Origin: Lytechinus pictus
Taxonomy: Eukaryota
DNA length: 64,000 nucleotides
Assembly (NCBI RefSeq): GCF_037042905.1
Contig: NC_087245.1
Location: forward strand, 10,728,001-10,792,000
Direction: 5' to 3'
Shown: positions 4,106-59,397 of the stretch, in pieces
Numbering within the stretch: position 1 is the first letter of the stretch
How the letters are laid out: each line of letters starts with the position of its first letter
The notes under the pieces: generated by a model
Told to the model about the DNA's origin: nothing
The model's input: the letters and a program-made list of their open reading frames with translations, nothing else
Database searches by the model: none
Translations under genes and position numbers: made by a program

Positions 4106-4418
4106 GGCCCGTATTCTGAAGTCGGGTTTAACTTAGACTCAGGTTTAAAGATGTGGTTTAAGTATGGGAAGCAAAAAGTACCAAAATTTTTATTAAGTTG
4201 TATGTTTCTTATGTTTACTGTGCTCTTTCCTGATTCATCGATGGTGAAGACAATCATTTATTTATACTTCCTACACAATTATAAATGATTTGAGAGCCGA
4301 ATGAGCTGAAAGTATGATATCTCTACTGTTAGTGATTATGTAACAATTGGCTGTCCATACTTAAACCACAATTTTAAACCTGAGTCTATAAGTTAAACCC
4401 GACTTCAGAATACGGGCC
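4106..4418. mobile_element. MITE, PIF/Harbinger-like (3-bp TSD)
   Basis: ~60-bp TIRs GGCCCGTATTCTGAAGTCGGGTTTAACT... / ...AGTTAAACCCGACTTCAGAATACGGGCC; ATA on both sides (4103-4105, 4419-4421); no coding capacity. Confidence 0.8.
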
Positions 4419-7171: not shown

Positions 7172-9081
7172 GAATTATCATAATCATGAGTATCCGGCTC
7201 TGTGTATGATAATTGATTTTAATCTTACTGTTGTGGCGACGCATTCCGGTGCTCTATTCTATTTTTGTGAATCGCTTTCTATAATCATTCTTATGTTTTA
7301 TTCTTGGTTTCCCTTCTTTCAAGCCTTTGGGGCTTCTTGGGATACCTTTTTCTTTCATTATTTTTTATTAATCTCACCTTAATGACTGATGATTATATTT
7401 GTATATTCATGTTCAAAATATTGTATGATATTTGTATGTTTTTACATGTATATAATTATTATTGAAAGAAATAAATGAGAGTAATTTCACTCTCCCTCAA
7501 ACCAATTATATAACATCGTGGTAGTACCGAAGAAATTTACTATTCGTTGGATCCCTGTATAATTTTGTTAAGGTTTTTAACAAGAAAAAAATAACACTTG
7601 AGTAATGAACATTCAAGAAAAGATAAATCAGCTTTTCTTATCCCATGCGCACCATCTTTTTACTTTTAAAACATTTGTTTGATTTTTTTTACTTGAAAAA
7701 GCAGGATGATGGGCAGCCCCTGTCATTCTGGAGCCTTCTTGCATCCCAAAACTATATAGGGAGTGGTATTATTAACCGGCTTGGCTTCTAATTGGTGGCT
7801 TTTGGATTATCCCATAGCTTTTATATCAATATTGATTTTATCATTTATAATGATTAGTCTTTAAATTTTTTTTTATTTGTAATACTTTTCTTGCTTCTCG
7901 TTTATCATTATCATAATGATAATACATTGTTGGTAATCTAATAACTATCATTATCATCTGATCACTTCAATAAGCGAGGAAGTCACAAATATTAGTTTAG
8001 AGAAAGAGGAATTGATTTATAGATTAATGGAAAACATATTAGAGAGAGAAAATGGTATTATTCATGTAGCCGAAACGTTACAATTTAATATTTCGATACA
8101 TTCATGTTGTTTACTCTTCTACCGTAATTCATTCATTATCAAGATGACTTTATGATAATTTTGTCACCTAGTTTCTGCTAGTTCCAGGCAATGTGGGTAA
8201 ACCTCTTTAGATTAAAGATAAATTTTAATATCTGGTACGTGTTCATTATATGGGAATTAATATCACATGTTAAGAATCGTTCATGTGGGCTGAACAGTGC
8301 ATTTCAAATGATGCAAGACAGACGGCTGTGCAAGTATTCCATTATTCTTCATTATGCTTGTCACTGTCGATTTAGAATTTCAGGAAGGCTAGCTGCGGAT
8401 ATACCTTTGCACATCAATATATCATATCAAATAATTGGTCAGGATATTTCATTACTTGTAATGAAAGACTATTGTATGTTCTGTGACGTATGTTCCCTAC
8501 ATGAGGGATTGTCTGCTCTTCATCTTTCTCATATTGGAAGAAAATCTCATCAGATCGATGAAAAGATCGTTTTACCATATTCAACTACCCCATTTTCTGT
8601 TTTTTAATTGGATGCGGTTATCGCGTGCTGACAGTGGCTAAAGGAGTCCCCAAGTACATTGTTATCCGAGGCTTACTGAAAAAGACACTTGACAAACAAG
8701 TGTGATTTAGATAAAAGACAGGAACGTTTCAGAATTTATTTATTATATTGCTGGAGGGCACGAGATATATGACAAATCACCAGAGATGATCTGGTAATCT
8801 GAATTAGTTTTCCGATTGAGTTTCTTCAAGGTACTTCAGTCAAACTTCCATTTCCCAGGTCCATACTCGTTTTGGTACGTTTTGGTAATCACCCTATTAA
8901 CTCTATTTTTTCCTTACTCCACCCGTGAGGGATAAATTAATACTTGCAATGAATAAATTCCTTGTATCTTTTCCCCGTTCTCGGAATTAAGTCCGTTCAA
9001 AAGCTGTCGTCACAGGCTTACTCAAACTTTGGAAAACAATAGTGAGTGCCTTGAAACGTACTACAAGCCTTCACATACTTC

Positions 9082-9265
9082 AACTGGGTGTTGTGGCGTG
9101 CGCCTGTAATCCAAGCTGTGGGGAAGTTACAAATTGATGCAGAGGTTCGAGCCCTGGTCGCGTCTTTCGGATGGTGACGTTAAAGGTCGGTCCCAGACGT
9201 AAATAATCATATCTGATTGATACACGTCTGACAAAACTCAAATACACACACACACACACACACAC
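9082..9265 (+). mobile_element. SINE with 7SL/SRP-RNA-like head and (CA)n tail, copy 1
   Basis: Head ACTGGGTGTTGTGGCGTGCGCCTGTAATCCAAGCT resembles the 7SL/Alu 5' end; B-box GGTTCGAGCCC; (CA)n tail; imperfect TSD CACATACTTC / CACACACTTC; near-identical copy at 54693. Confidence 0.8.
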
Positions 9266-9291
9266 TTCATATCCTTTGAGAGCAGAATGAA

Positions 9292-11958
9292 TTCTTTGTT
9301 ATTCTGGGCAAAAAAGTTGAATGGAAGTCTTGACGTCGAGGTGGTTATAAAAAAAAATAATGTATAGGCCTAATAATGGCGGTTTGACAGAGAAATATAG
9401 AACAATTTGAGAAATATGTAAGTAATAAATATTATTTTAGTGACGTCAAATCAGAGCAGCTTTTTGATCCCCACATCATGTGATATACAGCAAAATCCAA
9501 AAATTACAATTTTTGTAATGGACCACGAGAACTTCCCAGAAAGCGCGTTTCTGATGATACGTTGACTGCAATGCCTAAGGCATTTATTTATCATATTCCC
9601 GGTCGGTGGCAGGAGATCGGGGGTAATCGGGGGGTAGCCGGTGTGGTGAGCGATTAAAAAAAATATCAATCCTCATCGGCCAAATAATCGTCAACACATC
9701 GCAGGCACAAATGCCATCGTGCAGAGTTCGTCCATACACACGAAAATTTGTTGAGCCGGGGAAGCAGCGATTAACGGTCGGAAATCGACTGGACATCTGA
9801 TACTAATACCCATTAAATCATAAGGTGAGTGTGTGATAGCCGGACGATAATCCAGACATCGAACAATTATTGGTAGAGTCAGTGGCGTACCGTGGGTCAC
9901 GGCATGGGGGGGGGCATCAGCAAACATTTTGAGTCACTTAAAGAGCGCGCGAAGTGCGCTCAGTTGCCAGGTATACTGACATAATAGAGACATTTTTAGG
10001 ACAGTGTCATTAAACGGATATGTATCTCACTGGTCACATAATGCGAGCGCGAAGCGCGAGCTGAAATTTTTTGAAATTCAGACCTAAAAAGGATATTATA
10101 AGCAATTATTTTTGTAATCATAATACATACCTGTCTCGCTAAACAAACCATGCGAGCGCGAAGCGCGAGCTGAAATTTTTGTATATATTGACCCCAAACA
10201 GGGACATTTTAAGGACTATATTTTAGGAATCCATTAAGAGTATACATATCTCACCATATTCATCTATTGTGAGTGCCTATCTCTTGCTGATTTTGTTAGA
10301 ATAATATACATCTAAACACATGAAGCACTTTTTGTAATCATTGTAATCATGGTTAACATACGCATCTCACTAATCAAATATTGCGAGCGCGAAGCGCGAG
10401 CTGAAAATTTAGGAAATTCAGACCTGAAGAGGGACATTTTAAGGCTTGTTTGTAGGAATTCACGAAGATCATACGTATTTCACTAACAAAAATATGCGAG
10501 CGCGAAGCGCAAGCTTAAATTTTTGCATATCATTGACCCAAAACAAGGATATAAGGACTATTTTTTTTAAGGAATCCATTAAGAGTACATATCTCACCAT
10601 AGTCATCTAATGCGAGTGCCAAGCGCATGCCAATCTTGTTAGAATTACATGTAAATGACACATGAAGCACTTTTTGTAGTCATTGTAATCATGATTATCA
10701 TACACGCATCTCACTAACCAAATGATGCGAGCGCGAAGCGCAAGCTGAACATTTTTGATATTCAGATAAAAAAAAGGGACATTTTAACGACTGATTTTGG
10801 GAATTCATGAAGAACAGACATATTTCACCAATCCACGAATGCGAACGTAAGCACGGACAGGAAATGGTTTATAATTAAGACCTTAAAATGGGGCAACCAC
10901 TTTAATTTAAGTAGTCATAAAATAGAAGCATATGTCACTACATAAACAATAATAATTCGAAGTGCGAGGAAATATATTTGGTGTATATTGACTTGAAAAC
11001 GGGAGGTTTTAGTACAACAGGATTATATATCTTGTTAAACATACAATGCGAGCACCAGGAACAATGAAGACATAGGCCCTGCGCAAATTATGTTTCATAA
11101 AGTTATACATTTTTTTAAATGTAATATAATTATAACATAATATAACATTATAATTAACAATAATTTCTTCTTTCCCCACTACGTTTCTCTCCCTTTCTCC
11201 CTCTTTCTCCTCTTCCCCGTTTTTTTTTTGGCCAGCCGATTGGGGGGGGGGGGGGCACGTGCCCCCACATGCCCCCCCGTAGTTACGCCACTGGGTAGAG
11301 TATCCTACGGCTATCATACGATTGTCGGCCGATGTTCTTTGTTATTCTGGGAAAAAAAAGTTGAATGGAAGTCTTGACGTCGAAGTGGTTATAATAAGAA
11401 AAGAGGAAAAATGTGTAGGCCAAATAATGGCGGTTTGACAAAGAAATATAGAAAAAATTTGAGAAATATCAATGAATATTATGTTTGTGACGTCAAATCA
11501 GAGCAGCTTTTTAATCCCCACCTCATGTGATATTCAGTAAATTCCATAAATTACAATTTTTGTAATGGACCGCGAGAACTTCCCAGAAAGCGTGTTTCTG
11601 ATGATACGTTGACTGCAATGCCTAAGGCATTTATTTATCATATTCCCGGTCGGTGGCAGGAGATCGGGGGTAATCGGGGGGTAGCCGGTGGGGTGAGCGA
11701 TTAAAAAAATATCAATCCTCATCGGCCAAATAATCCTCAACACATCGCAGGCACAAATGCAATCGTGCAGAGTTCGTCCATACACACGAAAATTTGTTGA
11801 GCCGGGGAAGCAGCGATTAACTGTCGGAAATCGACCGGACATCTGATACTAATACCCATTAAATCATAAGGTGAGTGTGCGATAGCCGGACGATGATCCA
11901 GACATCGAACGATTATTGGTAGAGTATCCTACGGACATCATAAGATTGTCGGCCGATG
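9292..11958 (+). repeat. Tandem duplication of a ~625-bp unit (copy A 9292-9879 plus 11294-11334; copy B 11335-11958)
   Basis: Both copies start TTCTTTGTTATTCTGGG and end GATTGTCGGCCGATG; ORFs 9584-9796 and 11534-11842 share N-terminal sequence; copy A is split by a hAT-like insertion. Confidence 0.9.
9880..11293. mobile_element. Non-autonomous hAT-like DNA transposon (1.4 kb) with internal ~120-bp tandem subrepeats
   Basis: TIR CAGTGGCGTA / TACGCCACTG; exact 8-bp TSD GGTAGAGT (9872-9879, 11294-11301); empty site at 11918-11925; repeated TGCGAGCGCGAAGCGCGAGCTGAAA motif across ~10020-10750. Confidence 0.92.
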
Positions 11959-13763: not shown

Positions 13764-14191
13764 ATTTGGACTAGTATCAGCTAAATTAACGATAACGAAC
13801 CCCTAAAACCTGTCAGCTATTGTTAATGAAACAATTTCGTTAAGTTCTTCCCAGAACGAATACCGAAATATGACTACTTTAAAAGCACCCCCACACACCT
13901 CACCCATAACACAATCCTCACACACGTGCCCACACGAATATAAGAGTGTCATCTCGAAACGTAATTACATGTGTACCCATCACGAATCTGGAAAACGTGA
14001 GGACAATTCCTTCATAATTACGGAATGTTCAAATTGATTATATTTAATTAGTTGTCCTATATGACCTTAGTCGTCTCTTAACATGTAAGCCTGTCGTGCC
14101 TTTTTGATTTTTGTTGTTGCATATTCTCATACATATCTCGATTGATATCCAATATGATTTTATAGGCACGCCCAAAAAAATAATTACTTAA

Positions 14192-14780
14192 AGGGCAAGT
14201 CCACTCAAACAAAAAGTTGACTTTAATAAAAAGAGAGAAATCCAACAAGCAGAACACTGAAAATTTCATTAAAATCGGATGTAAAATAAGAAAGTTATGA
14301 CATTTTAAAGTTTTGCTTAATTTCACAAAACAGTTATATGCACATCTTGGTGGGTATGCAAATGAGGAGACTGGTGACATCATCCACTCACTATTTCTTT
14401 TGTATTTTATTAGATGAAATAGGGAATATTCTATTTTACTTCTCATCGTCAAGCAAAACAAAAATCAATTCCCCTGAACATGTGGAATGAGCAATGATTA
14501 ATACTATATGATTCAGTCAAGTTAGCCCTTATTGTCAAATCTATAAAATATGAAATATTGTATAATTCAAACAATAAAAAAAAAGAAATAGTGAGTGAGG
14601 GATACCATCGACTGTTTCATTTGAGTTGTGCATATCACTGTTTTGTGAAAAATAAGCAAAACTTTAAGATATTATAACTTTCTTATTTTACATCCGGTTT
14701 TGATGAAATTTTCAACATTTTGCTAGTTTGATTTTTCTCTATTGATTCAAATTAACATTTTTCTAGGGTGGACTTGACAT
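14192..14780. mobile_element. TTAA-flanked MITE, Kolobok-like
   Basis: TTAA at 14188-14191 and 14781-14784; long imperfect TIRs starting AGGGCAAGTCCAC / ending GTGGACTTGACAT, including GGATGTAAAATAAGAAAGTTAT and its reverse complement. Confidence 0.8.
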
Positions 14781-15697
14781 TTAAATGACATCGGTATATG
14801 CAAAATGAGCGAATACCGTAACATTATAAATCTTTGAAGTATTGAAATAAGAAATTTAACATAATAATTTTCTACCAAGTAAATCCAATTTATTGTTGAA
14901 TGCTATTTTGCTTTATATTTACTGGGAAGTTGAATTAAGTTATTGCTTTGTAGGTTTTTAGAATCTGTAGGTATTACCGATTATTCTGGTACCGAAAAAT
15001 CACATGAATACGCCTTGTTCATTCTTACGTGGCTGTCGCCAAGGGGGGGGCGACGCAGAGGATTATCCTTTGTTCATGGGGAACATCTTTTGTTGCGTCT
15101 CTTACGCCCATGGCTGTTGCTATGTTAGGTTAAACACCCTTGTATCAAGGATGTTAGAGCAGTATTTTAATCATTAAGCGCTTGCAGAAGCGCATGACAC
15201 ATGCGATCGTGTATTTCATATATGTTTAATATGATCCACAGTGTAAACCAAAGTAAACTACATATTAACTCAGTTTCATACCACAGACGCTTATGTCTCA
15301 TTTAAAAATTAGGAGGGAGGGGATACCACATCTTTAAAGACAAAAAAAGCTATCATCAGAGTAAATAGATATGCAGACGAATGAATGAATAAATAAATCA
15401 AAATAAACATCAGACGTTTACACAAACTCCCAATTTCACACTTCAGATTAATCCGGGCTACGAATCGAACGAGATCCGATTTTGGAATATAGGTTAGCCC
15501 ATGAAATCTTGCGATTATCGTAGGGTAAGAGCTTGTCTCCCAGGAAAAATGTACGATATGAAATAAAGGATGTGGTTACTGGCTCCGGAGATCCATTGTA
15601 GGCCAATTGTGACCTTGCCAATTAGGAAATGGTAATGATTAGCTTTTGTCTAAAAACATGTACCTGTTTATTCATATTTTAGAAGTACTGATATTAA

Positions 15698-16048
15698 AGG
15701 TATTGTTTAACTTTGTGAGCAGCCGATTAAAAAAAAATTGAAACCAAGATGAAACATGTGTACAAGTGCATGTATTAGAACTAATAAACCCTGAAAACAA
15801 CCATTATTGAGAATGAAAAGCTAAAACTACAAGGCAAACCCCGATTTTGTAAATAGGCGTCTTATAGACGCCTAAATAGTACACATAAGTGTATGGGATG
15901 AATTTAAGATGGTGTTTTCGGTCACTTTATATTTCAATTTTTGAAGCCCTAAATAATTATTTTCGAACGCAATTTTGTCTGGGCTTCATTTTTGTAACAT
16001 ATCACAGACACAGGTTTTTTAAAGTCAAACCAATGTTAACCAATCACT
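15698..16048 (+). mobile_element. TTAA-flanked MITE, Kolobok-like (same family as 40998-41547)
   Basis: TTAA|AGGTATTGTTTAAC ... GTTAACCAATCACT|TTAA; CTTTGTGAGCAGC...GATGAAACATGTGTA is shared with the inverted copy near 41.5 kb. Confidence 0.7.
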
Positions 16049-18982: not shown

Positions 18983-19178
18983 CACTCTTAAAAACGTTGG
19001 GCAACATACGGTCCACACAACAATTGGTTAAAACTTTATCAAATTCTGAGTAGCTTTAAACCAATAATGTGTGCTTTTGGTGAAAACTACACAGTATTGG
19101 TTGAAAACTACCCAGAGTTGGATAATGTTTTAACCAATTGTTGTGTGGACCGTATGTTGCCCAACGTTTTTAAGAGTG
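18983..19178. mobile_element. CACTA/EnSpm-like MITE
   Basis: ~50-bp perfect TIR CACTCTTAAAAACGTTGGGCAACATACGGTCCACACAACAATTGGTTAAAAC; 2-bp TSD AA. Confidence 0.85.
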
Positions 19179-25407: not shown

Positions 25408-26400
25408 AAACAAGTGGAGCGCCTCTGGCAGTCTCGCCTGTATTACGTAATTCGATATAGCATCAGTGCTGCCTTTGAAAACAGCTAATTAATAATTATT
25501 CACAGCAGAAAACACTAATGTGATAATAAAATGTTATGTTCATTGACCCAAAATGACCTTCGCCCATGATCATGTAACCTAAGACATGTGCAAAACAATA
25601 ATTCATACTTTATTACCCTGCTCATAGGGCATTCAGGGATGTTCTTGTGTCCAAGTTTCATGAACTATAAGATTTAAAAGTTATGATGGCAATTCTTCAA
25701 ACACCCCCAACATGGCCAAAGTTCGTTGACCCTAAGTGACCTTTGACCTTAGGCATGTGACCTGAAACTCGCACATAGTAGTCAGGGGTTTATGGTTGCT
25801 CTTATGTCCTAGTTACATGAACTAGATCTATAAACTTTTAAAGTTATGATGCCAATTCCTCAAATAACCCCAACATGGCCAAAGTTCATTGACCGTAAGT
25901 GACCTTTGCCCTTAATCATGTGACTTGAAACTCGAGCGAGATCTTAAGTGATGCACTATTACCCTTATGTCTAAGTTTCATGAACTAGGTCAATATAATT
26001 TCTAAGCTATGATGAAATTTCAAAAACTTAACCTTGGTTAAGATTTCGATATTGAGTCCACCAACATGGTCTAAGTTCATTGAATCTAAATGACCTTTGA
26101 ACTTAGTCATGTGACCTGAAACTCAAGCAGAATCTTTGGTGATACTCGATTATCCTTATTTCCAAGTTTCATGAACTAGTATAGGTTTATATACTTTCTA
26201 AGTTATGATGCCAATTCAACACATACTCCCAACACAGCCACAGTTCATTGACCTTTAAATGACCTTTGATCTTGACCATGTTCCTGGAATGCGCATAGGG
26301 TGTTCAGGGATGTTCTTATGCCCAAGTTTCGTGAACTAGATCTATAAACTTTTGAAGTTATGATAACAATACCTCAAATAACACCAACATGGCCAAAGGT
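25408..26400. repeat. Array of ~5-6 diverged 155-190-bp units, probably the body of a Helentron-like non-autonomous element
   Basis: Recurrent CCAACATGGCCAAAGTTCATTGACC...TGACCTTTGACCT...CATGTGACCTGAAACTC...AAGTTTCATGAACTAG (anchors 25707, 25870, 26061, 26229, 26384); begins AAACAAGTGGAGCGCCTCTGGCAGTCTCGCC. Confidence 0.8.
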
Positions 26401-26430: not shown

Positions 26431-26579
26431 CAGAGGCCGCGGAACGGTTTTCAAAGTGGGAGGGGGGGGGCTGACCATGCAAAAAATCACAATCATATTG
26501 TCATTTTTACGTTTTTGTATACGGTTTTGGAAAAAAGTGGGGGGGGGGGGGCTGAAGCCCCTCGCTTCCGCGGCCCCTG
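26431..26579 (+). mobile_element. ~150-bp MITE with 5-bp TSD, copy 1
   Basis: TIR CAGAGGCCGCGGAA / TTCCGCGGCCCCTG; TAGCC on both sides; second copy at 52842. Confidence 0.85.
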
Positions 26580-28942: not shown

Positions 28943-29466
28943 TACATGTTTTGTTTTTTGTTTGTACGGAGACGGTTTCCAGGATAAGTCAGTTATCAGA
29001 AAGGTGTTCTTGCACGCATTCATGAGTGTGAGGTATTACTGGTCTTTGTCCTGACAAATTCAGAATTCATTCAAACAGCAGGGGAATTGTCATGTTTAAA
29101 AATAGGGTGCAAAATTGGCGTTTTGGGCGCTTCGGTGTGGGCCTCCATTTGAAGTTATTAAGAGGTCCTTCGATTCCTGGACCAAGTCTTTCGGACGGTG
29201 AAATATCCATGTTTAAGGGATGTTTCAAGTCGCATATTGATTCATAAACCAAATTAAGCAGAAAACATACACCCACACAAACACCCCCACGCACTCCCAA
29301 ACACCCACACACATGGCTACGATACTGATAGGAATCGTAATTTTTCAGCGATCATTTTTAAAACATTATGTCAACAGGATTATACCCAACTGAGCAGCAT
29401 ATGCACTTTGACTTTCAACCGAGGACATCTTTTATAATCTTAATTAAGATTTTTTTCTTATCCCTA

Positions 29467-30070: not shown

Positions 30071-32292
30071 ATAATTTCAAATTTCAAATTTATTTATTTC
30101 ACTTCCATCAAACAAAAACAAATTGTATACCATATATAAACATAAATATTTGTATCCGTTGCACAAAAAAAATTAATGATACATATGTTGTGAAAAAACA
30201 CTTAGACAATTTGGGCAACACATTGTAGGGTTTAAATATGTATACTGTTTTTCAATAGAAATTAAATTAAAATGGAAATGGGGGGACCCACTAAAAGGCA
30301 ATGCTTGTACAATGTGGGCCCCTGAAAAAATGGATAACACAACAAATAATAAAATAACAAAGTATAAATACAGATAATCAAATGAGAAAAAAAAATACAT
30401 GAGAGGGAAATACTCACAAAATAAATACAAAGTTATAAAAAATATATAGTTTGATAAAGGACAAAACAACCCGTCCTAAAAATATCCACCCATCCTCACC
30501 CCACCCCTCCCCCCCGAAAAAGAGAAGAAAAAAGGGGAGAATGCCCTGAGAAGATGGATGTGTGCTGCTGTACGTAGATAGAACACATGCCGTCGTGGAC
30601 TCAAGCAAACTGGATTCAATGATGTGTATATAAGGAGAAAAAAATATATAAAATAACCTGGAAAGAATATAATGCACGAAGAATGTGATTGATGCCGTGA
30701 ACAAATAACCGGTAGGAAGGCGGATAAGCGGACAGGAGAGGAGAAAATAGAGAGGATAGACACAATAATGTATGAGGTTCAATAATGAGCACATCTGAGA
30801 AGGACTTGTGTCAGATTTTTTTTAATAATAAAAATGGATAATTATTTTATGTTTTAATTGTAGTCTTTAAAGTAATAATGATGACTTGACAGAGATGATG
30901 AATTAAACTTAATTTGGGAGTATATTATAAGGTTTTAATAGAGATAATTTGAATTTAGTCTCAAAAGAGTTCAAAGATTTTGCATGTGTTATATCATTAT
31001 GAAGTGAGTTCCATAACTTCGGTCCATCATATATAAATGTGTTCTGAGCCCGCAAAGTTCTTAAAAGTGGTAAATGAAATTCACCCAATCGCCTTGTTGG
31101 ATAGTTGTGAATGGATTGATTTTTAGGAAACATTGAATTAAATACATTTGGGAGGTTGGTGTTGTTATAGTTATACATGAACTGACCGAGATTAAACAAA
31201 TATAAGTCTTTAATTTTCAATATTTTATGTTAAAAAAATAATGGGTCAGTATGAGACAAATATGCCATGTGACATATAATACGTAGAGACTTCTTTTGTA
31301 ATAGGAGTAATTTGTCTAAGAGTGTTTGTTGTGTATTACCCCACGCTAAAATTCCATAATTTAAATAAGGCAATATAAGGGATGAATATAATGTAAGCAG
31401 GTACGATAATGGTAAACAAAATTTAAGCTTGTTAATTATACCAATGTTGCGTGAAATAGTTTTACATATGTTATCTATGTGAAATTTCCATGAGAGCTTA
31501 TTATCGACTGTTATTCCAAGAAACTTAATATGGGATACATTTTCCAAGGGAGTTCCATCTAAAATAATATCAACAGGAAGTGTATTTATATATAGAGTTG
31601 CTAAACAACATATATTTTGTTTTTTGAAGATTTAGTGACAATTTATTTGCTCTTATCCATTCGGTGACATTTTCTAGTTCAGAGTTGATTATATTAGCAA
31701 GGTGAAGAGGATTTTTATGTGAAAAAATAAGTTAGAGTCGTCCGCAAAGAGAATGAAAGAAAGAACATCTGATGATCTACAAAAATCATTTATATAAACT
31801 ATAAACAAAATCGGGCCTAAAATACTACCCTGGGGAACTCCACAATTATTTTCTTTCATTTGAGAATTGCAACCGTTTAAAAAGACATATTGCTTCCTAT
31901 TCAAGAGGTAGCTCCTGAACCACTCCAAGGCCTTCCCACGCACTCCATAATGATGTAATTTGTTAATATCATGATTAATGGTGTCAAAGGCCTTGGAGAA
32001 GTACAGGAACAAACCAATCAAATGAGAAGATTAATCGATTAAATGTGCCGCTTTTTCAATGAAACTCAAAGCATGTGTGGTGCTATGCTTTTCCCTAAAT
32101 CCAAATTGGGAATTTGAAAGAATATTATTTGATTTGAAAAAATTTACAGTTCTTTTATAAATAATCTTTTCAAGTATTTTCGACAATGTAGATAACAAAG
32201 AAATTGGGCGGTAATTATTAACATCAAATTTATCACCCTTTTTAAACAAGGGAATGACTTTTGCAATTTTCATGCTTTTGCAATTTTCATAA
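30071..32292 (-). mobile_element. 5'-truncated non-LTR retrotransposon (CR1/L2 group LINE)
   Basis: RT-coding fragments, then a ~800-bp 3' UTR with stem-loop (GGGGACCCAC...GTGGGCCCC, ~30282-30322), AATAAA and a (TTTGAAA)n-type tail at ~30071-30100. Confidence 0.9.
30909..32275 (-). pseudogene. Disrupted LINE ORF2 reverse transcriptase
   Basis: Four consecutive ORF fragments: KIAKVIPLFKKGD..NYRPISLL..SQFGFR; FSKAFDTINH..GVPQGSILGPILF..FADDSNLF; KFLGITVDNKLSW..YGILAWG; HNYPTR..GPKLWNSL; separated by frameshifts. Confidence 0.93.
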
Positions 32293-33851
32293 TGTTGGCA
32301 AGCAAAAAAGGTTCTGCCGACGTCCTTGTGATGGCATCCGAATGGATATTCTAATACCATTTGAAGATAATATAAACAGTGTTAGACGGTATGTTATATG
32401 TTAACAATTAAGATCTCAATGAAAATCATCGCTTTTAATTTGAAAAGTAGTGCTTGGAAAGAGCGAAGTGTTTCTGAACCTTCCATCTGGAACATCTGGT
32501 CTCCCATCTCATGGGTTAAAAAGCAATCCTGGTCATTGTGAGGTTCATTGCGACTTAAAACAGAATGTGAATATGATTTTCTGGGTTGCTTTCGATGTTC
32601 GCTATCATCTCATGGTAATACCTGAGTTCAGGAATGTATCAAATTAATTCAACGACTTTCTAAAAATGATCTTATCAATAGTCCTCCACGAACATTTTCA
32701 AAAGAAATGTAGGCTAACCCATTTCATGAAAACGTCATATATTCCATTTGTGCCACAGTTGTATTTTGAATAAAAGTAAAGCATCCAAGTCGTAAAGACA
32801 GTAGAAAAATTGAGAATTTAATCATGTATTTTATTTATTTGCATAATGACCCTTTTAATGTAGTCTTCTGGTGGCAGTAGAATTAATTGCTTCCTCAATT
32901 TCATATATTTTAATTCATGAACTTTACTTTATTCTTTTATTCAAATTCCCGACGTGTTTTTCATGTTGCCTTTTGACTTATTTTGTGTCTTGCTATCTCA
33001 ATTAAAAGTCTGAAATTTTAAAAAATCAAGGAGACATCTAGGTAACATTCTATACATAGACTTGTAAACAAAATGTTGCGTCAATTTTGTGAAAACTCGA
33101 ATTTTTTGTGAGATTACAATCGTTTGCATGCAGTAGGAAACTTCAACTTTTAAACAGTGCAGTATTAAGCATGTGTCATACGAGAGGACTCGAAGAGCTT
33201 GAAATGTCTCTTGTTTCCACTCTGTTATGCATAGTGTGATCCTAATATGATTTCATTCATGATTGATTGTGTCGTCTCTGGTGCATTTTCCTTCCCAGTA
33301 GACAAGCTATATCACCAACATAGTCTTGCATGGTGGCACAACTGATTCGTCCTTGTACAGAGTAGCATATCGTGGGCCGACATGGAGAGGGAGGTAAGCA
33401 GTGGTGGTAAAGTAAGATGTGTCAGAAAGGAGCTAGAAAACTGTCAGTTTTACACCTTTGCATATTACTGCGCATTGCTACGAATGTACCCAGCCATATA
33501 CACGAACTAGGGTAGTATGCTTCGTATCTAGATCGTTAGTAGATCGTATACAAAGCTAACTGTATTTGAGCTGGATAGGCTAGATTGGGTAATAAAGCAA
33601 CTGCTAACTAAACTGGGTACAGGCAACAATACAAGCACCCACCAGGGAAGATAAATCGTGCACGAAAAGCAGCAACGCGGTCGCAAGAAGATTTCTAAAA
33701 CCAGCTAGCAACTATAGAATGGGCTTTAGAGTATATAATAACTTAGCCCTTGTACGTTGGTTCACATCCTTGGTAAATGCGCTACGCAGAGTTGAGCTAT
33801 TAGTATCATCTTTAAAATGTTTAAAGTGAGGTGTTCAGGGGACAGACGAAT

Positions 33852-40997: not shown

Positions 40998-41547
40998 AGT
41001 GATTATTTCAAGTTTGTTCTGACATAAAAAAAAAATCTAATTTTGGTTCTAGCAAATGGGCTTAATATTAGGTTTGTAGTGTAAAAATACCATCCAAAAA
41101 GTTTCAAAGTATCAAATCTACAGGAACTATTTAAAACCTATAGAGTTAGAAAATAATTGGGGGTTGGTTTCAATGACTATACGTATACAGCGAATCTGTG
41201 CACCACAACACATACACTCTAGATGAACACAGCATGACCTACAAAGTGTGTACAAGGTTCACTGAATGTACAATGTAGCTTATAGTGTGTGCATAGGAGA
41301 AGGCAGTCAACACAGCCAACGGACTTTTTTATTTGGAGAAAACTGGTCATAAGCTTAACCCGTCTCGCAGACGGTTTGTCAAAATCAGGCAAATAAATTG
41401 CTGCTTGTATCTAAATAAGAGGTTTTTTTCATTCTATATTGTGGTCTTTTTCAGGGGTTTTGAGGAAAAATACAGGCACTTATACACATGTTTCATCTCA
41501 GGTTGAGAATCTTTAAAATCAGCTGCTCACAAAGTGAAACGATCCCT
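40998..41547 (-). mobile_element. Kolobok-like MITE, diverged inverted relative of 15698-16048
   Basis: TTAA|AGTGATT... left end; right end GCTGCTCACAAAGTGAAACGATCCCT|TTAT matches the reverse complement of the 15698 end. Confidence 0.65.
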
Positions 41548-44500
41548 TTATGTATGCATGGATCTCTTTTTTAATGTAAGCATTGTATTGCCTGAATATT
41601 TTTAAAGAATGATATCTCCCCAAAGCAGTGCTCTGCAAATAATTATTATGCTCCAGTCTTCCCCTTTTTACTACATTTTATTCCCCATCAGCCAAATAAA
41701 CAAACTGCTATCAATACTATTCAAAACGCCATTTAGCTTATTATACAAACGAAACAAAATAGCTTTTTAAATCCTGCTGGAGGTCATTAGGTCCAACGAT
41801 TAGCATTCCATTAAGAGATAGAATTTACAGTTAATGAATGTTGTCAAGCGAGATTCATTTCGCTTTGTTTTTCAAATCGATTATGGACTTTTCGGTGTCA
41901 TCGCTAATGATCTCGTGTTTTCGACTTTGGTCCACGTTTTGATTGAGGCAATAATTACACATACATGATGCCATATTTTACTCGAAAATTTTACTCGCAT
42001 TGCAACGTCAGACGTTTTTATGGACCACTCATCATCGCAATGACATTTTCAGCAAACACATTTAACAAAACATAACCTTGATCAGCATTGAGATTGCTAG
42101 ACTGAATGATATTCTGTCCGGTAGGTAAATTACCATCTTCACGCATTACCTTCGCCATTTCATTTGTCAATAATTGCAGGAAAATATACCATTAGATTGC
42201 CAATTACTTGTCAAAAACGTGTTGACACAAGTAAATGCTTCTCTTCAGAAAAGCACCAGTTTCTTGCAATTATGATACCTGATATGTGCATTGATTAAAT
42301 ATGCTTTCGTGAAAAAGCATTTGTTTTTAGAAAATATACCCTCGAACATTTGATAAGAAAGTATTATACATAGACTCTTTATCATGATCATTGCTGTCAA
42401 ATAAAGATACTTTAAATGCCTATAATAATATTATTGTTTATCGAAATGGACCAAGATGACCTTATGATTCACCTATTAAAAGATAATCATAAGTCCCATC
42501 GTAAAACACATCATGTAGGGATATATGGTAGGATGACGAACGAATATAAATATGGTTATGTCTATATGAAACTCACCTTCGTAAGGTCACGTGGTATGGA
42601 TATCGTTGAGTACCCGGATATCAACCGTGAGAGTGACAAGGTCTGCGGTAGATGATACCAATTACTCTGTATTTATAATCTTACATAGAAAACCAGAAGC
42701 GGGGGAGAAGAAAAAAACTACTATTCCTGTTCATATGATCGAAAGTCAAGGAGGGTCTCTAACGGAACGTGGGAATATTGCAATTAAAGTTGACATTAGA
42801 GTTGCGGGGTTATTTCCGATATCACTCTTTGATGTAGAAAGGCTTTGTTGGTGTATTCCATTTGTCGTGTTTGTGTGTTTCCATGCGAGGGCGTTTCATT
42901 ATAGTTGAGTTCGATAATGATTACGTTTATTGTCATAAGAATTCACATGGTTTTTTTTCTTTAATCTTATCTACATTTCAGGGTTGCCATGGGATATAAT
43001 GATACCCTTCTAAAATCCCAGTGTTGCTTCTACGAATGTGTCGGGTCTATTTGGTGCCTTTGTGAACAAGATCTTAGGAATCTAAAGTTTCTGCAAATAT
43101 TTATTAAAGTTGAAAATACACCAAAGCCATTATTTGCAAACAAGTATAACTTCTACGGCCAGGAATGTCAAATTAAATGTAAATGGGTAAAATGTCATGA
43201 AAGAGGTCGACATTCGATTTGAATTATGCTACTCAAGGATTTACAAAGCTTTTTTGTCTGCCTTTTCTTTCTTATAGCCCCACCCTCTCTTGACGGAAAA
43301 TCTGCAGAAAATGACAAAAACACCCTTTCAAGAAGATAAAATTTCAGAATTGGATTCAGGATCTTTGTTGAAACTTTATTTAACGAAATAAAACATTTTC
43401 ATAGCCTCAAAAGTATCAGAAGTTTAAAGACGTCTGCATCAACCCCTTTCCCTCGCACCCTCTCTTTCTAACCCCATCTTTCTCTCTCTTGCTCTCTCCA
43501 CCGTACCCTCCCTTTCACCTTTTTTTTAACTTATTATTTCAACATCTGTAATTTGAAAATTGGAAGTTAATGAAATCCCTATCAATAGTTTTTGTAAGTT
43601 TCTGACGGGTTCGGTGACCTCAAATGTATTAACCGTTCCCCATTTACAATTCAACCTTTCCAGCATTTTATATTTCTTAGATGCCTGCCTCGTCCTTCTT
43701 TTTCCTCGCTTCCTTAGTTTTTGCAGAATTCTTTAATTATTTCGTATTCTTTATCCTAGATACTGCGACCCATGGTAGTTACAATATCGGAGAAGTGTAG
43801 AAGATTGATTTGCGCAAGATTGAAACTACATCTACGCGCCTAATAAGACTCTTTGCTCGAATTACGAAAACCTCATCGTGGATTGGCTCTACTGAAGATC
43901 TACAAAGTCAAGGTTGTTTTTTTCTCAGGGCCAGGGATGTGTTCTAATTGTGACAGCTTTCTCTCCCGCAGCTACATGGAATAGCACCATCCCGAGTCCT
44001 CAAATGTTAAAAAACTCCCTGGTTGCTTACCTAGAATGCAATTATACCATAAAAAGGGTGTATAGCAATAGTTTAATACATTTTAGCTCACAATATTCTC
44101 ATTACGTTACAACTGGCAGTTGTTTTCGACTCATAATAAGAGAATCCATTAACATTTTAACTGTTTCTTAGCATTAGCAAAGGTAAAGTCCTATGCATAA
44201 ACGTTTGTCGTTGTAGAACAAGTATATATTGTTGGAATCTACTCATCCCTTAAAACCTGTCATTGAAATTTGTGAAAATCACTCGTCTGATTTCTATTTT
44301 GAGAATAACGAAACTATTCTTCTACTTCACACTGGAAAAACGCGGATTCTACTTACAGTGTCCACGGTCCGTCCCCGCCTTGATACTTCTCTCTCACCTG
44401 GTCTCTATGAGGCGCCGAATGTACCAATATTATATAGAACAATTATTTGTTATATAATCATTATTTATTAAATAATAACTATTATTTATATATAATTTAC

Positions 44501-44606
44501 ATTTTATTTGTAAATAACTACTATTATATAAAATATCATTTCTAATTATTTATATATAATTCCAAGTAATACTTCATTATTTGTAAATAATAATAGTTCG
44601 ACATTC

Positions 44607-44965
44607 CATTATTTATAAATAATGATTATTTGTTTTTCATTATTTATAAATAATGATTATTTGTTTTTCATTATTTATAAATAATGATTATTTGTTTTTC
44701 ATTATTTATAAATAATGATTATTTGTTTTTCATTATTTATAAATAATGATTATTTGTTTTTCATTATTTATAAATAATGATTATTTGTTTTTCATTATTT
44801 ACAAATAATGATTATTTGTTTTTCATTATTTATAAATAATGATTATTTGTTTTTCATTATTTATAAATAATGATAATTTGTTTTTCATTATTTATAAATA
44901 ATGATTATTTGTTTTTCATTATTTACAAATAATGATTATTTGTTTTTCATTATTTATAAATAATT
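44607..44965 (+). repeat. 31-bp minisatellite, left arm of foldback 1
   Basis: Unit CATTATTTATAAATAATGATTATTTGTTTTT, about 11 copies. Confidence 0.93.
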
Positions 44966-47959
44966 TGTTGAGTTTTCCATTATTTATAAATAATGATTAT
45001 TTGTTAAATAATGAAAACGTCTACTTCATTATTTATAAATAATTTTTTCGAGTGCACCATTATTCTCATTATTTATAAATAATCATTATTTAATGTTCGA
45101 GTTTTCCACTATTTATAAATAAAGATTATTTGTTAAATAATGGAATATCTACTTCATTATTTATAAATAATAATTTTGTTTCAATATCCCATTAATCATT
45201 ATTTATAAACAATTTTTACAGTTTGCCATTATATACAAATAATCATTATTTATATACAAATAACCATTATTTATTAAATAATGCCATTATTTATTAAATA
45301 ATGCCATTATTTATTAAATAATGGAAAACTCGCTATAACATGCAAATGTGGGACCGCCCATGATATGAATATTCATGATGCGATTTCCTTTTTCGTGATT
45401 TTTCTTCACAAATTTTTGTCCATTTCCTCTTCATAATGACATTTCTTGAAGCAATTTTCTAGGGATATGGTCTGATTGTAATATTCTTCATTTTCTATAT
45501 AACTTCGTCTTCGTAGAAATATTAAAAAGTGTAATTTTATACGATTTTTCCTACAGTTCACAATCCCCATAGGCGCGCGTGTACGGTAGGGACAACCGGT
45601 GAATCGACGGAGTGCTCTTCATCGAAATACTACGTTGGTTGGTCCCCGGAAGTGGCGGGCGGAATTTAGCCCGAATCCTCGATGGAAGTCGATCAAGTGC
45701 ATATGAGCTGAGAGAGTGAAATATCAGTACTTGTACAGGCCCTTGTACAGGCCCTTCTACTTTTTATAAATATTTCTTGTTGCTTTTTTTGTTAAGTTAA
45801 TTTTTCCTGGTGTAGAGATAAGTTTCAGTTCTAATAATGCACTTCAAATACATTTTGGAGTGTCTGTTTGAGGCGTTTGGGGCGATTTCACCCTGGCCCC
45901 AAAATGCTCGCAACGACAATACGGGGGCATGATGACCCCTAAATTTTTAAAAACTTATTTTTCTATTGAAAATTATCACAAAATTCACCAAAAGTGTGCA
46001 CGAAAGCCTTCGTATTTCACTTTTAAAACTCCAAAAAGTGCCCAAATGACAAGCTTGGTCGCTTCGCTGTGTCGCTTTCAACTTGAGAACGTTTACGCGT
46101 CTGCTTCCCCCCCCCCCCTCCTCCGAAAGAAATTATGTATACGGCCATGCTCTAAAGAGCCTGGCACATTGATTTATGTATACTTCATTTTCATTATTTT
46201 TATCTCATTATCATCATGGCCTTACGCATAATTTTTTCCGGGGGGGGGGTGGGGGGAGCAGGACGCGCGTAAACTTTCTCATAAAAATCTTGAAAAAGCG
46301 AAGCGACCAAGCTTGTCATTTGAGCTTGGTCGCGTCGCTGTCTCGCTTTCAAGATTTTTTTTGAGAAACTTTACGTGCGTCCTAGCTGCTCCCCCCCCCC
46401 CCCGGTAAAAATTCTGTGTAAGGCCATGATGATAATGTGATAAAAATAATGAAAATGAAAAGTACATATAAATCAATGTGCCATATGCTCTTTTGAGCAT
46501 GGCCGTTCACAGAATTTCTTTCGGGGGGTGGGGGCAGACGCGCGTAAACGTTCTCAAGTTGAAAGCGAGACAGCGAAGCGACCAAGCTTGTCATTTGGGC
46601 TTGGTCCCGTGGCTGTCTCGCTTTCAAGATTTTTTTGAGAAAGTTTACGCGCGTCATGCTCCGGCCCCGGCCCCCCTGGAAAAAATTCTGCGTAAGGCCA
46701 TGTTGATAATGAGATAAAAATAATGAAAATGAAAGTATACATAAATCAATGTGCCAGGCTCTTTAGAGCATGGCCGTATACAGAATTTCTTTCGGAGGAG
46801 GAGGGGGGGCCGGGGGGGGGGGGATATATCGAAGCAGACGCGTAAACGTTCTCAAGTTGAATGCGACACAGCGAAGCAACCAAGCTTGTCATTTGGGCAC
46901 TTTTTGGAGTTTTAAAAGTGAAATACGAAGGCTTTCGTGCACACTTTTGGTGAATTTTGAGATAATTTTCAATAGAAAAATAAGTTTTTAAAAATTTAGG
47001 GGTCATCATGCCCCCGTATTGTCGTTGCGAGCATTTTGGGGCCAGGGTGAAATCGCCCCAAACGCCTCAAACAGACACTCCAAAATGTATTTGAAGTGCA
47101 TTATTAGAACTGAAACTTATCTCTACACCAGGAAAAATTAACTTAACAAAAAAAGCAACAAGAAATATTTATAAAAAGTAGAAGGGCCTGTACAAGTACA
47201 CTGATATTTCACTCTCTCAGCTCATATGCACTTGATCGACTTCCATCGAGGATTCGGGCTAAATTCCGCCCGCCACTTCCGGGGACCAACCAACGTAGTA
47301 TTTCGATGAAGAGCACTCCGTCGATTCACCGGTTGTCCCTACCGTACACGCGCGCCTATGGGGATTGTGAACTGTAGGAAAAATCGTATAAAATTACACT
47401 TTTTTATATTTCTACGAAGACGAAGTTATATAGAAAATGAAGAATATTACAATCAGACCATATCCCTAGAAAATTGCTTCAAGAAATGTCATTATGAAGA
47501 GGAAATGGACAAAAATTTGTGAAGAAAAATCACGAAAAAGGAAATCGCATCATGAATATTCATATCATGGGCGGTCCCACATTTGCATGTTATAGCGAGT
47601 TTTCCATTATTTAATAAATAATGGCATTATTTAATAAATAATGGCATTATTTAATAAATAATGGTTATTTGTATATAAATAATGATTATTTGTATATAAT
47701 GGCAAACTGTAAAAATTGTTTATAAATAATGATTAATGGGATATTGAAACAAAATTATTATTTATAAATAATGAAGTAGATATTTCATTATTTAACAAAT
47801 AATCTTTATTTATAAATAATGGAAAACTCGAACATTAGATAATGATTATTTATAAATAATGAGAATAATGGTGCACTCGAAAAAATTATTTATAAATAAT
47901 GAAGTAGACGTTTTCATTATTTAACAAATAATCATTATTTATAAATAATGGAAAACTCA

Positions 47960-48352
47960 ACAAATTATTTATAAATAATGAAAAACAAATAATCATTATT
48001 TATAAATAATGAAAAACAAATAATCATTATTTGTAAATAATGAAAAACAAATAATCATTATTTATAAATAATGAAAAACCAATTATCATTATTTATAAAT
48101 AATGAAAAACAAATAATCATTATTTATAAATAATGAAAAACAAATAATCATTATTTGTAAATAATGAAAAACAAATAATCATTATTTATAAATAATGAAA
48201 AACAAATAATCATTATTTATAAATAATGAAAAACAAATAATCATTATTTGTAAATAATGAAAAACAAATAATCATTATTTATAAATAATGAAAAACAAAT
48301 AATCATTATTTATAAATAATGAAAAACAAATAATCATTATTTATAAATAATG
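47960..48352 (-). repeat. 31-bp minisatellite, right arm of foldback 1
   Basis: Reverse complement of the left-arm unit, about 12 copies. Confidence 0.93.
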
Positions 48353-49659
48353 GAATGTCGAACTATTATTATTTACAAATAATGAAGTATTACTTGGAAT
48401 TATATACAAATAATTAGATATGATATTTTATATAATAGTAGTTATTTACAAATAAAATGTAAATTATAAATAAATAATAGTTATTATTTAATAAATAATG
48501 ATTATATAACAAATAATTGTTCTATATAATATTGGTACATTCGGCGCCTCATAGGTCTCGCCTCAATTAGTATGAGGATAAATCGTCACACTATTCCTGG
48601 CTCGTACCCTACGGATTTTCTATTTTACTAACACTTATTCATTGCTTGGTGTCAGGCGATACGCTATGTTGTTTGAACCATTCACTAATCGAACATGTTT
48701 GCGTATGTGACGGAAATTGATTAGTTTCCCCGCAAAAGCGAGACAGATCGGTGCCAAAATTTGCAAACGTTCGGTCACGAAAGATTTGTATGCACCATGA
48801 ATTTCAAGTTACAAATCAAGTTGAACAATTCAACTTCTACAAAGTCAACGGTGAAGTTCGAACACAATAAACCACACTAGAAAGTTTGGAGGCATATCAT
48901 AGCCGGATTAATTTCGTAACGGTATTTAAGAAAAGCTTTAAACTGGGGGAGGGCGGAGCGTACACAAAAAGCAAGTATAGTATAAAAGGTTCTATTTCAC
49001 GGACAAGCAGTGTACACCCGTACACATGGTAAAGCTTTGTATAGTGAAAAAGTTAATGGTATATTAAAAAATTGTCAACATCATGGAAAACGGTGTACTT
49101 TTCAACCCTATAAACATTAAATGTTATTTTTGAATGGTCGTATACGAGCATGGTGTCTCTCTACTTCAAATTAACTTCGTTTACATTACAATAGGAAAGT
49201 GATTCATGTAGAAATACTAATAACAAGGTCTCTTCCATTCCTGTGAAGAGGCTGTGGCGTTTTAGGTTTGGTAATTGACAGAAGCAAGCACCACTTATTC
49301 GTAGAAACATGTCTTCATTCCAAAATAAATCCAAGCGTCTTGTGTTTGATGATCTCACATATTTGCGGCTACCGATACAGATCGCCCTACTTTATTTGAC
49401 AGACAACAAATTATAAACCGAAAAGTTCAATGTTCCATATATTCGTTTGATTCTTTCACGATGTTACACTAAAATGACTTGGTCAAAACGTGACATCGAA
49501 TTTTAACATATTCAAAATACATAACATTAATTGCTTGTATGCAAAAGCAAATGACTGCACTTTTGAAAATAAAGGGAGGATAGCTCAGGGCAACTTTGAA
49601 TTACGTTGTTTTCTTACCCCATTTTTCACAACACGCACACCCACACCCACACATTTAAC

Positions 49660-51289: not shown

Positions 51290-51435
51290 TTTTAAATATA
51301 TCAGTAAGTAGGTATGCATCAATATAATTTTCATGGTTTGTGTGATTGATTTTGTTTAAGTCATTGACCGATAAGTAACGTAGCCATTCTAAAGGCGTGA
51401 CACAGGGCTCCATCTTCGAACCTCTGTCCATCAAG
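51290..51435 (+). pseudogene. Highly decayed LINE RT remnant
   Basis: From 51391 translates KGVTQGSIFEPL, resembling GVPQGSILGPL. Confidence 0.35.
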
Positions 51436-52841
51436 TTGTAATTTCCCACACCCAGCTTTCATTCAGGGCGCAAGCCACAACGCCGAACTATTGGAATAAT
51501 TTTTACCTTTTAAAGATATACACTTCTTTTTTATGAACAATGAAAATGAATTGTGTAGGTATACCTTTGTCATCTAATTTGTTATAAAGTTAAGATCAAG
51601 AATGTAGGTCTAGTTTAATTACACATTTGAATTATTTTTAAGTACCAACCTGAGCAGTTTTGGGGAAAAATGTGTAATTGGCAATTTTACCCAAGTGTAG
51701 AGAGGATTGAAATGCAGCCTTTCTGCCCGTATACCGTACGCATACCGTACATGTCATGATGATGATTGTGTTTGGGGAAGAGTGATATTTGACATTGAAC
51801 TTGTTGACCTGAAATATAAGACTTGATCAATCTCTCTTGGACGCCTAATCGTGAGTTTGATCTTTGTGTCCATCTTTGCCCCTCTTCCCCGCTTGCATGC
51901 TTGCTCTCACCCGTCCATCTTTCTGTCTGCCTTTAATTGTTCTAAAAAGGACCAATCTTCAAGCCAACCTCCCTTTTTGCTGGGGCTGTTTGATTTCGAC
52001 AGGATTTCACTGCCTTCCTTAACCTGTGACAACTCATATAAGGCCATGATAGTTGTTGAAGCTGTGATTTAGGAGATGGTCATGTCTATGTGGGAATTCA
52101 ATCATCCCCATGTGGTTGCGCTATGCAAATGTGAAGGAAGAAAAAGACTCGGCGACACAGAGCAGTGGTTTTCCAATCAGGAAGTCAGTGGTTCCAACAC
52201 AATTCAATGAATTCGGACAATTTGTTTTAACAGAGATTATGAATACCGCCACTTAAATTATTGCCTGTTAAGCTGATAAACAACCACAGTTTTCTTTCTA
52301 CTAGTCAAGTCAAATATAAGACAAACCAACGGTTATTAAAATAAATAAAGGTTAAATACTATACTTTTTATTCAAAATATAAAAGTAATATCTAAGATTA
52401 TCTTTAGATTACTAGGCCCTAATCTTCATAAAACTTACAATATATGGAAATTCCTTAAGAAAATGATAATTAGTTTTCGATTAAAACGAATACTAAATCG
52501 ATTGAATTGCAATGTGCAGGATTACCACAGGAGTACGTGTATTTCGAACCTATACTTTTTATTTGCAACGGAGACATTTGATGTTGGATTATGAAATTCA
52601 TATGGATAGAAACAGAACAGTCAGAGGTATATGGAACAATAAGAGACAAGCCTCATTATACAAGATCAGAATGTATATCCATGGTATATCTGTACAATAA
52701 AGTTGCCCTGTTTTGTTTTCGTTTTTGCTTTTCCCCTGGTGTATTGTACTTTGTATGGATAAGTGTTTACTCGTATTATGCTTTTATTGTATATTTGTCA
52801 CGGTGTACTCGTCACAAGTTTTGCTGAGTTGTGACTTTTAG

Positions 52842-52998
52842 CAGGGGCCGCGGAACGGTTTTCAAATTTGGGGGGGGGGGGGGGGCTGACCATGCTAAAA
52901 ATCACAATCATATGGTATTTTTTACGTTTTTGTAAACGGTTTTGGAAAAAAGTGGGGGGGGGGGGGGCTGGTTGCTTCAGCCGCTTCCGCGGCCCCTA
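52842..52998 (+). mobile_element. ~155-bp MITE with 5-bp TSD, copy 2
   Basis: CAGGGGCCGCGGAA ... TTCCGCGGCCCCTA; TTTAG on both sides; body matches 26431-26579. Confidence 0.85.
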
Positions 52999-54692: not shown

Positions 54693-54869
54693 AACTGGGC
54701 GTTGTGGCGTGCGCCTGTAATCCAAGCTATGCGGGGAAGTTACAAATTGATGCAGAGGTTCGAGCCCTGGTCACGTCTTTCGGATGGTGACGTTAAAGGT
54801 CGGTCCCAGACGTAAATAATCATATCTGATTGATACACGTCTGACAAAACTCAAATACACACACACACA
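54693..54869 (+). mobile_element. SINE with 7SL/SRP-RNA-like head and (CA)n tail, copy 2
   Basis: ACTGGGCGTTGTGGCGTGCGCCTGTAATCCAAGCTATGCGGGG...; only a handful of differences from copy 1; possible short TSD TTCT; nested in 53297-54991. Confidence 0.82.

Positions 54870-56198: not shown

Positions 56199-56238
<40 letters not shown>

Positions 56239-59339: not shown

Positions 59340-59397
<58 letters not shown>

Follow-up and report, generated by a model that had tools for sequence, protein, structure and literature searches.

In a window of 64,000 nt from Lytechinus pictus (NCBI RefSeq assembly GCF_037042905.1, contig NC_087245.1, positions 10,728,001 to 10,792,000 of the forward strand; 'the window' denotes this whole stretch, numbered from its first letter), a short interspersed element (SINE) occurs in nearly identical copies whose first nucleotides resemble the 5' end of 7SL RNA. 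This locus raises the question of whether an invertebrate SINE acquired its head from 7SL independently of human Alu, or whether the likeness has a more ordinary source. We hold it highly probable that the element is a 7SL-headed chimeric SINE. The copies and their candidate target-site duplications are as follows.

9083-9265, plus strand: SINE copy 1, full length, young (97.2% identity to copy 2; nhmmer E 5e-45)
54694-54869, plus strand: SINE copy 2, full length, young (alignment to copy 1)
51351-51485, minus strand: SINE copy 3, old, decayed at the 3' end, same head-linker-body order (73% identity over 133 columns; nhmmer E 3e-13)
29124-29237, plus strand: candidate copy 4, very old and weak (nhmmer E 0.0017)
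9077-9082 (left) and 9264-9269 (right, overlapping the tail end), plus strand: candidate 6-bp target-site duplication of copy 1 (equalled by 58 of 5000 random flanks)
54689-54692 and 54870-54873, plus strand: candidate 4-bp duplication of copy 2 (equalled by 894 of 5000 random flanks, not above chance)

In pairwise alignment, copy 1 (9082-9256) and copy 2 (54693-54869) were 97.2% identical over 177 columns. Through the end of the body they differed by three substitutions and one 2-nt indel, and all three substitutions were transitions at sites where one copy has a CpG. The 300-nt flanks were unrelated, with shuffled sequences scoring as high in 139/200 and 36/200 cases. The first-pass annotation had described two near-identical copies of about 180 bp with unrelated flanks, an internal B box and a (CA)n tail, all of which was borne out: the B boxes lie at 9144-9154 and 54757-54767, and the tails are (AC)11 and (AC)6A. 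Its description of the family as young applies to copies 1 and 2 but not to the family as a whole, which also has old copies at 73% identity; the worn copy 3 and the weak candidate at 29124-29237 had not been mentioned.

The reversed window, used as a control, gave no nhmmer match. Identities in copy 3 were 36/44 for the head, 33/34 for the linker and T-arm and 37/51 for the body, and shuffled sequences scored as high as its head, linker and body in 0, 0 and 1 of 300 cases, respectively. Because all three parts matched above shuffles, the junction of head and body predates the recent burst. The chimeric order of head, linker and body was uniform in three copies of different age, and the element is not a plain 7SL retrocopy. 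At about 180 nt, interspersed and non-tandem, with three dispersed copies in unrelated flanks, it agrees with the short (<1 kb) repeat described in the cited part of the SINEBase paper (PMC3531059). The two young copies in 64 kb correspond to a density of 4-113 per Mb (95%). Target duplications exceeded chance in one of the two young copies, the longest being 6 and 4 bp. With a G+C content of 27-39% and a CpG observed/expected ratio of 0.91, the window is animal-type and repeat-rich; vertebrate genomes are CpG-depleted, and the ratio speaks for an invertebrate host. Among 24 sequencing runs listed, 20 contain a part of the sequence (best share 0.32; two organism codes), with no RNA run among those listed as containing it; these rows were left out of the analysis.

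The 7SL-like head

The heads of the two young copies were located as follows.

9083-9127, plus strand: head of copy 1, from the 5' Alu domain of 7SL (29.3 bits to Rfam Metazoa_SRP, whose position 1 falls at 9083; 12 of the 14 pairs in the model are standard)
54694-54740, plus strand: head of copy 2, likewise from the 5' Alu domain, with an A-box-like motif and both SRP-RNA pairing loops (Rfam model 1-44)

The first-pass annotation had put the likeness of the copy 2 head to human 7SL at 28 of 36 positions and proposed a search with the Rfam metazoan SRP model; the likeness is judged here by this search, which recovered the head. Copy 2 aligned to positions 1-44 of Metazoa_SRP (RF00017) with 29.6 bits (E 4.2e-6 in an E-value scan of 351 nt), and model position 1 fell on the first base in both young copies. 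In a scan of the whole window, 14 Rfam matches were obtained, of which only two were to SRP, namely the young copies (E 8e-4 and 9e-4); the others were mostly miRNA hairpin models that had matched palindromes or AT repeats. At E up to 10, Rfam had neither a tRNA nor a 5S family that matched the element. At the gathering score of 70 the Rfam scan returned no match, the head scoring below it because its match covers 44 of the 299 model positions. An exact scan for the head pattern found no occurrence in the viral, genome and metagenome contigs.

By our own count, 35 of the 44 consensus letters were matched, and four of the nine differences belong to two pairs of the closing helix, model 1:44 and 3:42, in which both partners are changed. 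Of the model pairs, 12 of 14 were standard, one of the non-standard pairs being non-standard in the consensus as well, one helix-3 pair was U.U, and all four loop-loop pairs could form, in agreement with the pairing segments that had been named from the sequence beforehand. The copy 1 head is 2 nt shorter in loop 4 than that of copy 2, and where it differs at a model or loop-loop pair, which happens twice, a wobble pair is left. Nearest-neighbour folding of the 47-mer gave -8.0 kcal/mol for the SRP fold versus -14.1 kcal/mol for the best fold, and the pair probabilities of the three SRP helices in the full RNA were 0.0, 0.04-0.16 and 0.68-0.96. The SRP fold requires tertiary contacts and protein. 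The fold of the whole element was ordinary (z -0.12), and that of the body had a z of -1.6.

SINE1 heads are defined in the cited part of PMC7245038 by a 5' part from 7SL RNA, and the element begins with RF00017 model 1-44 from its first base. Set beside the SINEBase rule of at least 60% identity over at least 60 nt (PMC3531059, cited part), the 47-nt head gives 35/44 over 47 nt, which is shorter than the overlap in the rule, and an extension to model position 72 is neutral. Judged from these alignments, a 7SL origin is demonstrable for about the first 47 nt only.

The head also matched the Rfam miRNA model mir-1268 (E 0.0014), which we take to be an Alu-derived model, and this match is what could be said for contamination with, or capture of, a human or vertebrate Alu. 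Such an origin, or a set of separate 7SL retrocopy accidents, is the least probable of the explanations weighed here. The three copies range from 73% to 97% identity, have the same junction and stand in unrelated, host-like flanks; moreover, the differences from the consensus are compensatory, and neither poly(A) nor an Alu body is present. The first-pass annotation had likewise set Alu contamination aside, and its grounds, a body unrelated to Alu and a (CA)n tail, are now joined by the common junction in three copies.

Body, probably tRNA-headed relatives and limits of the 7SL piece

A metagenome scan with the body pattern found two loci, L001 and L002, and the same pattern had no match in the viral and genome contigs. 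The remaining parts of the element are as follows.

54741-54755, plus strand: linker, either 7SL nt 48-62 or a remnant of a tRNA head (identity 3/15 to L001 and 2/15 to L002; about 0 bits added to the SRP model)
54756-54769, plus strand: T-arm-like segment that includes the B box (54757-54767), which stands in register with that of the relatives (ungapped identity 9/14 to L001 and 7/14 to L002)
9144-9154, plus strand: copy 1 pol III B box (from the sequence)
9157-9241, plus strand: copy 1 body and tail stem-loop, common to tRNA-headed SINEs (alignment to L001 and L002)
9244-9265, plus strand: copy 1 (AC)11 tail (from the sequence)
54770-54806, plus strand: copy 2 body, resembling the 5' end of the Deu domain (28/36 to the AmnSINE1_HS row in Fig. 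S4 of PMC7245038, cited in part, counted by eye)
54807-54856, plus strand: copy 2 3' tail with a predicted stem-loop at 54807-54843 (fold; 0 of 8 substitutions break a pair)
54857-54869, plus strand: copy 2 (AC)6A tail (from the sequence)

The 85 nt at 54770-54854 matched L001 at 80/85 and L002 at 83/85 positions, the latter with a 9-nt insertion. After the body, L001 has an (AC)n-like tail and L002 an (AACC)n tail. Neither head resembled that of the window element, as 277/300 and 168/300 shuffles scored as high for L001 and L002, respectively. In Rfam, the two heads had no SRP match and no tRNA match, and the L002 head had no match at all. Both heads carry A- and B-box-like motifs, and their lengths are about 75 nt (L001, less a 363-bp MITE) and about 99 nt (L002). 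On the basis of these motifs and of relaxed, unspecific ARAGORN calls, we read them as probable worn tRNA heads.

Three elements from different sources, each with a different head, were 94-98% identical in body and tail (L001 496-580, L002 264-357 and window 54770-54854). Such near-identity under different heads would point either to very strong constraint, or to recent repeated head exchange, or to horizontal spread. The MITE in L001 occupies 84-446 within the A-box region of this tRNA-headed SINE, and has inverted ends and 3-bp flanks of TAA/TTA type; we take it to be Harbinger-like.

Among the three relatives, six of eight substitutions in the tail stem-loop were unpaired and none broke a pair, which lends the fold weak support, the changes being few. 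The predicted stem-loop is likely a signal for recognition by a LINE. The tail pattern had no match in the genome contigs. Its sole viral match (L003) was a 19-letter stretch within phage head-tail genes with an nhmmer E of 0.1-0.2 and was dismissed as chance. The 3' region of the LINE in the window did not match the SINE tail, with 15/200 shuffles scoring as high. The Deu likeness of the body refers to one printed row, AmnSINE1_HS, and to nt 1-37 of the body.

The head and body enclose a stretch whose source bears on the extent of the 7SL piece. The distance from the B box to the body is identical and gapless in copy 2, L001 and L002, and upstream of the B-box segment the identity to the two loci falls to chance (3/15, 2/15, 3/19 and 3/19). 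An Rfam alignment of copy 2 to the full model (1-299) scored 29.5 bits versus 29.6 bits for the head alone, with 5 of 13 pairs non-standard, and the bases from 54770 that it used belong to the body common to the tRNA-headed loci. No linker-body duplex stood above chance (359/500 shuffles as good). A scan of the sequence cut at 54770, which permits a 3'-truncated match, gave a colinear alignment that reached model position 72, contained a 2-nt insertion and scored 29.8 bits, so that the extension beyond the head added 0.2 bits, with posterior probabilities of 0-6. By these alignments, the 3' strand of the Alu domain is missing from the SINE, and nt 48-77 speak neither for nor against a 7SL origin; because they give no decision, the crossover is placed between nt 48 and 76.

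These data bear on a variant of the chimera in which the 7SL piece reaches about nt 76 and brings its own B box, with only the Deu-like body and the tail derived from a tRNA SINE. The colinear 3'-truncated alignment, the onset of strong identity to L001 and L002 only at 54770 and the fact that matches in the B-box segment are mostly invariant box letters would all suit this variant. We nevertheless judge it improbable, given the 0.2 bits and low posterior probabilities of the extension and the exact, gapless distance from box to body in all three elements.

An ordinary tRNA-derived SINE (SINE2) whose likeness to 7SL arose by chance through the common A box was also considered. ARAGORN with default settings made no tRNA call; relaxed to 85% of its threshold it called a tRNA-like fold at 54697-54779, and a further relaxation to 80% extended such calls to both copies. 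Controls with shuffled heads gave the same call in 43/300 (85%) and 149/300 (80%) cases and thereby reproduced it, so the call reflects the B-box arm and not the head. In Rfam, the element matched SRP but no tRNA family, and 35/44 letters together with two double changes far exceed an A box. A tRNA-like character was confined to the T-arm segment, and the SINE2 candidate was rejected as already largely refuted and very improbable. The term 7SL-derived, applied to the element in the first-pass annotation, thus stands for about its first 47 nt, which match 7SL, but not for the B-box region, body and tail, which are common to tRNA-headed SINEs, and its description as Alu-like holds for the 5' domain only.

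Proposed origin and comparison with known 7SL SINEs

The best reading of these data, in which we have fairly good confidence, is that a 7SL 5' Alu domain was swapped as a head onto a tRNA-type SINE, with predicted use of SRP9/14. A template switch or recombination would have replaced most of the tRNA head of a Deu-related, tRNA-headed SINE with the 5' end of the host 7SL. The resulting pol III promoter would be a hybrid, with an A box from 7SL and a B box from the tRNA T-arm about 53 nt apart, and transcription would stop at the first downstream T run; the element is free of internal stretches of four T, and downstream the first T runs are reached 6 and 169 nt beyond the tails. The 47-nt domain would then take the fold it has in SRP RNA and, by binding SRP9/14, carry the RNA to ribosomes, to be copied there by a LINE reverse transcriptase. 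This enzyme may come from a LINE of stringent type, probably CR1/L2-like, for which the (AC)n tail and the 3' stem-loop would serve as recognition signals and which would prime reverse transcription at the target. Short or missing target duplications would fit a partner of CR1/L2 type. Sea-urchin SINEs are paired with CR1 or L2 in a review table (PMC3747384, cited part).

A functional precedent is described in the cited part of 10.1101/2024.12.16.628748, where SA46 (7SL nt 1-46) binds SRP9/14 and supports about 86% of Alu retrotransposition in HeLa cells, and the 3' domain gives 7%. This minimal Alu domain (SA46/AY46) is the same 46-47-nt piece as the head of the element. SA46 was made in the laboratory and is provided with an external promoter and poly(A), whereas the element occurs naturally, with a B box of its own and a tail that has structure. 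According to the same source, a piece of SA46 type without the B box needed for further rounds cannot amplify alone; the graft onto a tRNA SINE seen here supplies exactly this missing B box. Against the proposed reading, the SRP9/14 data were obtained with human L1, a LINE for which poly(A) suffices, and the element is without poly(A).

We lean slightly towards the view that SRP9/14 binding matters for the spread of the element. The 7SL head could instead be no more than a promoter part (the A box) or a founder accident, with no SRP9/14 role and with mobilisation by the tail alone. In keeping with this, L001 and L002, tRNA-headed with the same tail, move without the 7SL piece, the computed folds disfavour the SRP structure, and the copy 3 head (36/44) is about as worn as its body (37/51). 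However, the retained piece stops at the closing helix of the 5' domain, which is the experimentally minimal unit, and wobble pairs remain at both places where copy 1 differs in a model or loop-loop pair. We therefore regard an SRP-independent head as doubtful, and rate it a little below the variant with a longer 7SL piece.

We then compared the element with known families as characterised in the cited portions of the respective papers. The hagfish family, described as the first SINE1 outside Euarchontoglires, comprises both Alu-domain strands and an RTE tail, and also arose by chimera with a tRNA SINE (PMC7245038). Its member SINE1-1_EBu (Ebu1-1) of Eptatretus burgeri is similar to the element in that a 7SL head sits on the 3' part of an older tRNA SINE, and in being young with a microsatellite tail and a non-L1 partner (PMC7245038). 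It differs in that it has 96 nt of the 7SL 5' end plus the 3' end, that is, the whole Alu domain with its own B box, whereas the element has about 47 nt, no 3' strand and a B box in tRNA register (PMC7245038). Furthermore, SINE1-1_EBu has bipartite RTE sequences and target duplications of about 17 bp, in contrast to the Deu-like body of the element and duplications of at most 4-6 bp (PMC7245038). Compared by duplication length and by motifs, the element departs from the design with a bipartite RTE tail and an approximately 17-bp duplication: its duplications are 6 and 4 bp, and two of its tail and body motifs were not found in the SINE1-1_EBu supplements.

Alu, FLAM and B1 of Euarchontoglires and Urop of the shrew mole likewise have the 5' Alu domain at their very start, but their 7SL part has a central deletion with both Alu-domain strands retained, followed by poly(A) and mobilised by L1, all of which the element is without; Alu and Urop are, in addition, dimers (PMC13023118). 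The design with 5' and 3' Alu-domain parts after a central deletion, common to Alu, B1, Urop and Ebu1-1, was thus not found in the element, nor was the poly(A) tail with an L1 partner of Alu, B1 and Urop, in place of which an (AC)n tail follows a stem-loop. Judged by its sequence, the element has the head of a SINE1 but departs from the design of Alu, B1, Urop and the hagfish family. A precedent for a mixed unit is given by the tree-shrew Tu SINEs, whose leftmost unit is of tRNA or dual 7SL and tRNA origin; they are set apart by their description as dimers or trimers from a supraprimate 7SL SINE (PMC13023118).

Over its first 37 nt, the body is similar to the beginning of the Deu domain of DeuSINEs, Nin-DC and Inv SINEs, including the sea-urchin SINE2-3_SP, and a head exchange from tRNA to 5S is known in the DeuSINE superfamily (PMC4824008, PMC4758252, PMC3747384). 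The Deu domain of DeuSINEs is about 130-140 nt long, whereas the element is without the remainder past 37 nt, and the listed sea-urchin SINEs all have tRNA heads, unlike the 7SL-headed element (PMC4824008, PMC4758252, PMC3747384). Body domains and the definition of SINEs follow the cited parts of PMC4824008, PMC4758252, PMC5786205 and PMC3531059.

The first-pass annotation had stated that 7SL SINEs are known mainly from Euarchontoglires and hagfish, which is right for both groups but leaves out Urop of the shrew mole (PMC13023118, cited part). In the cited parts of papers of 2020, 2024 and 2026, 7SL SINEs are reported only from supraprimates, hagfish and shrew mole, with a near-identical central deletion that keeps both strands (PMC7245038, PMC13023118). 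In the literature searched, which omits most subscription journals, we found no 7SL SINE reported from sea urchins, echinoderms or invertebrates, and no paper with the body motif. The element is likely the first 7SL-headed SINE from an invertebrate, with just the minimal Alu domain, and likely an independent invertebrate counterpart of the use of 7SL by human Alu. We give an even chance to the fuller claim that it is the first non-vertebrate 7SL SINE and a fourth independent origin on a different plan, in which a minimal Alu was grafted onto a tRNA SINE that provides the B box and a LINE-specific tail, so that SRP9/14 ribosome targeting would be a portable booster effective with a stringent, non-poly(A) LINE. 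The element breaks the central-deletion pattern and agrees with the 46-nt unit defined in HeLa cells. Two elements that share body and tail but carry a 7SL head in one case and a tRNA head in the other make a natural matched pair, and the tRNA-headed sister family would, if the proposal is true, be a built-in control for an SRP9/14 effect. The element would open to test whether SRP9/14 binding helps SINEs whose LINE reads tail structure and not poly(A), as well as the reason for the great rarity of 7SL heads.

Other repeats in the window

The other repeats in the window were of several kinds. A decayed non-LTR retrotransposon at 30900-32400 on the minus strand contained two RVT_1 fragments (2 of 26 frames had a Pfam match, both RVT_1), and its homologues reached up to 87% identity among the matches listed. 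Two foldback elements at 44406-48553 and 55192-60380 had arms of more than 1 kb that were 95-99% complementary; they consisted of tandem repeats, with units of 31 bp or of about 22 bp together with GATA runs, began with TATG, ended with CATA and were flanked by 6-bp target duplications.

A 590-bp duplication (93% identity) at 9292-9879 and 11335-11925, with its two parts 2 kb apart, starts 27 bp after copy 1 and encloses an array of units of about 110-340 bp at 10018-10831. Palindromic MITE-like repeats were found at 4106-4418, 14188-14784, 18983-19178 and 61678-62186, and the palindrome at 19013-19148 gave a spurious miRNA hairpin match. A degenerate tandem array lies at 25619-26398, and two dispersed repeat pairs, 26431-26578 with 52842-52997 and 15695-15819 with 41426-41550, had identities of 77-87%.
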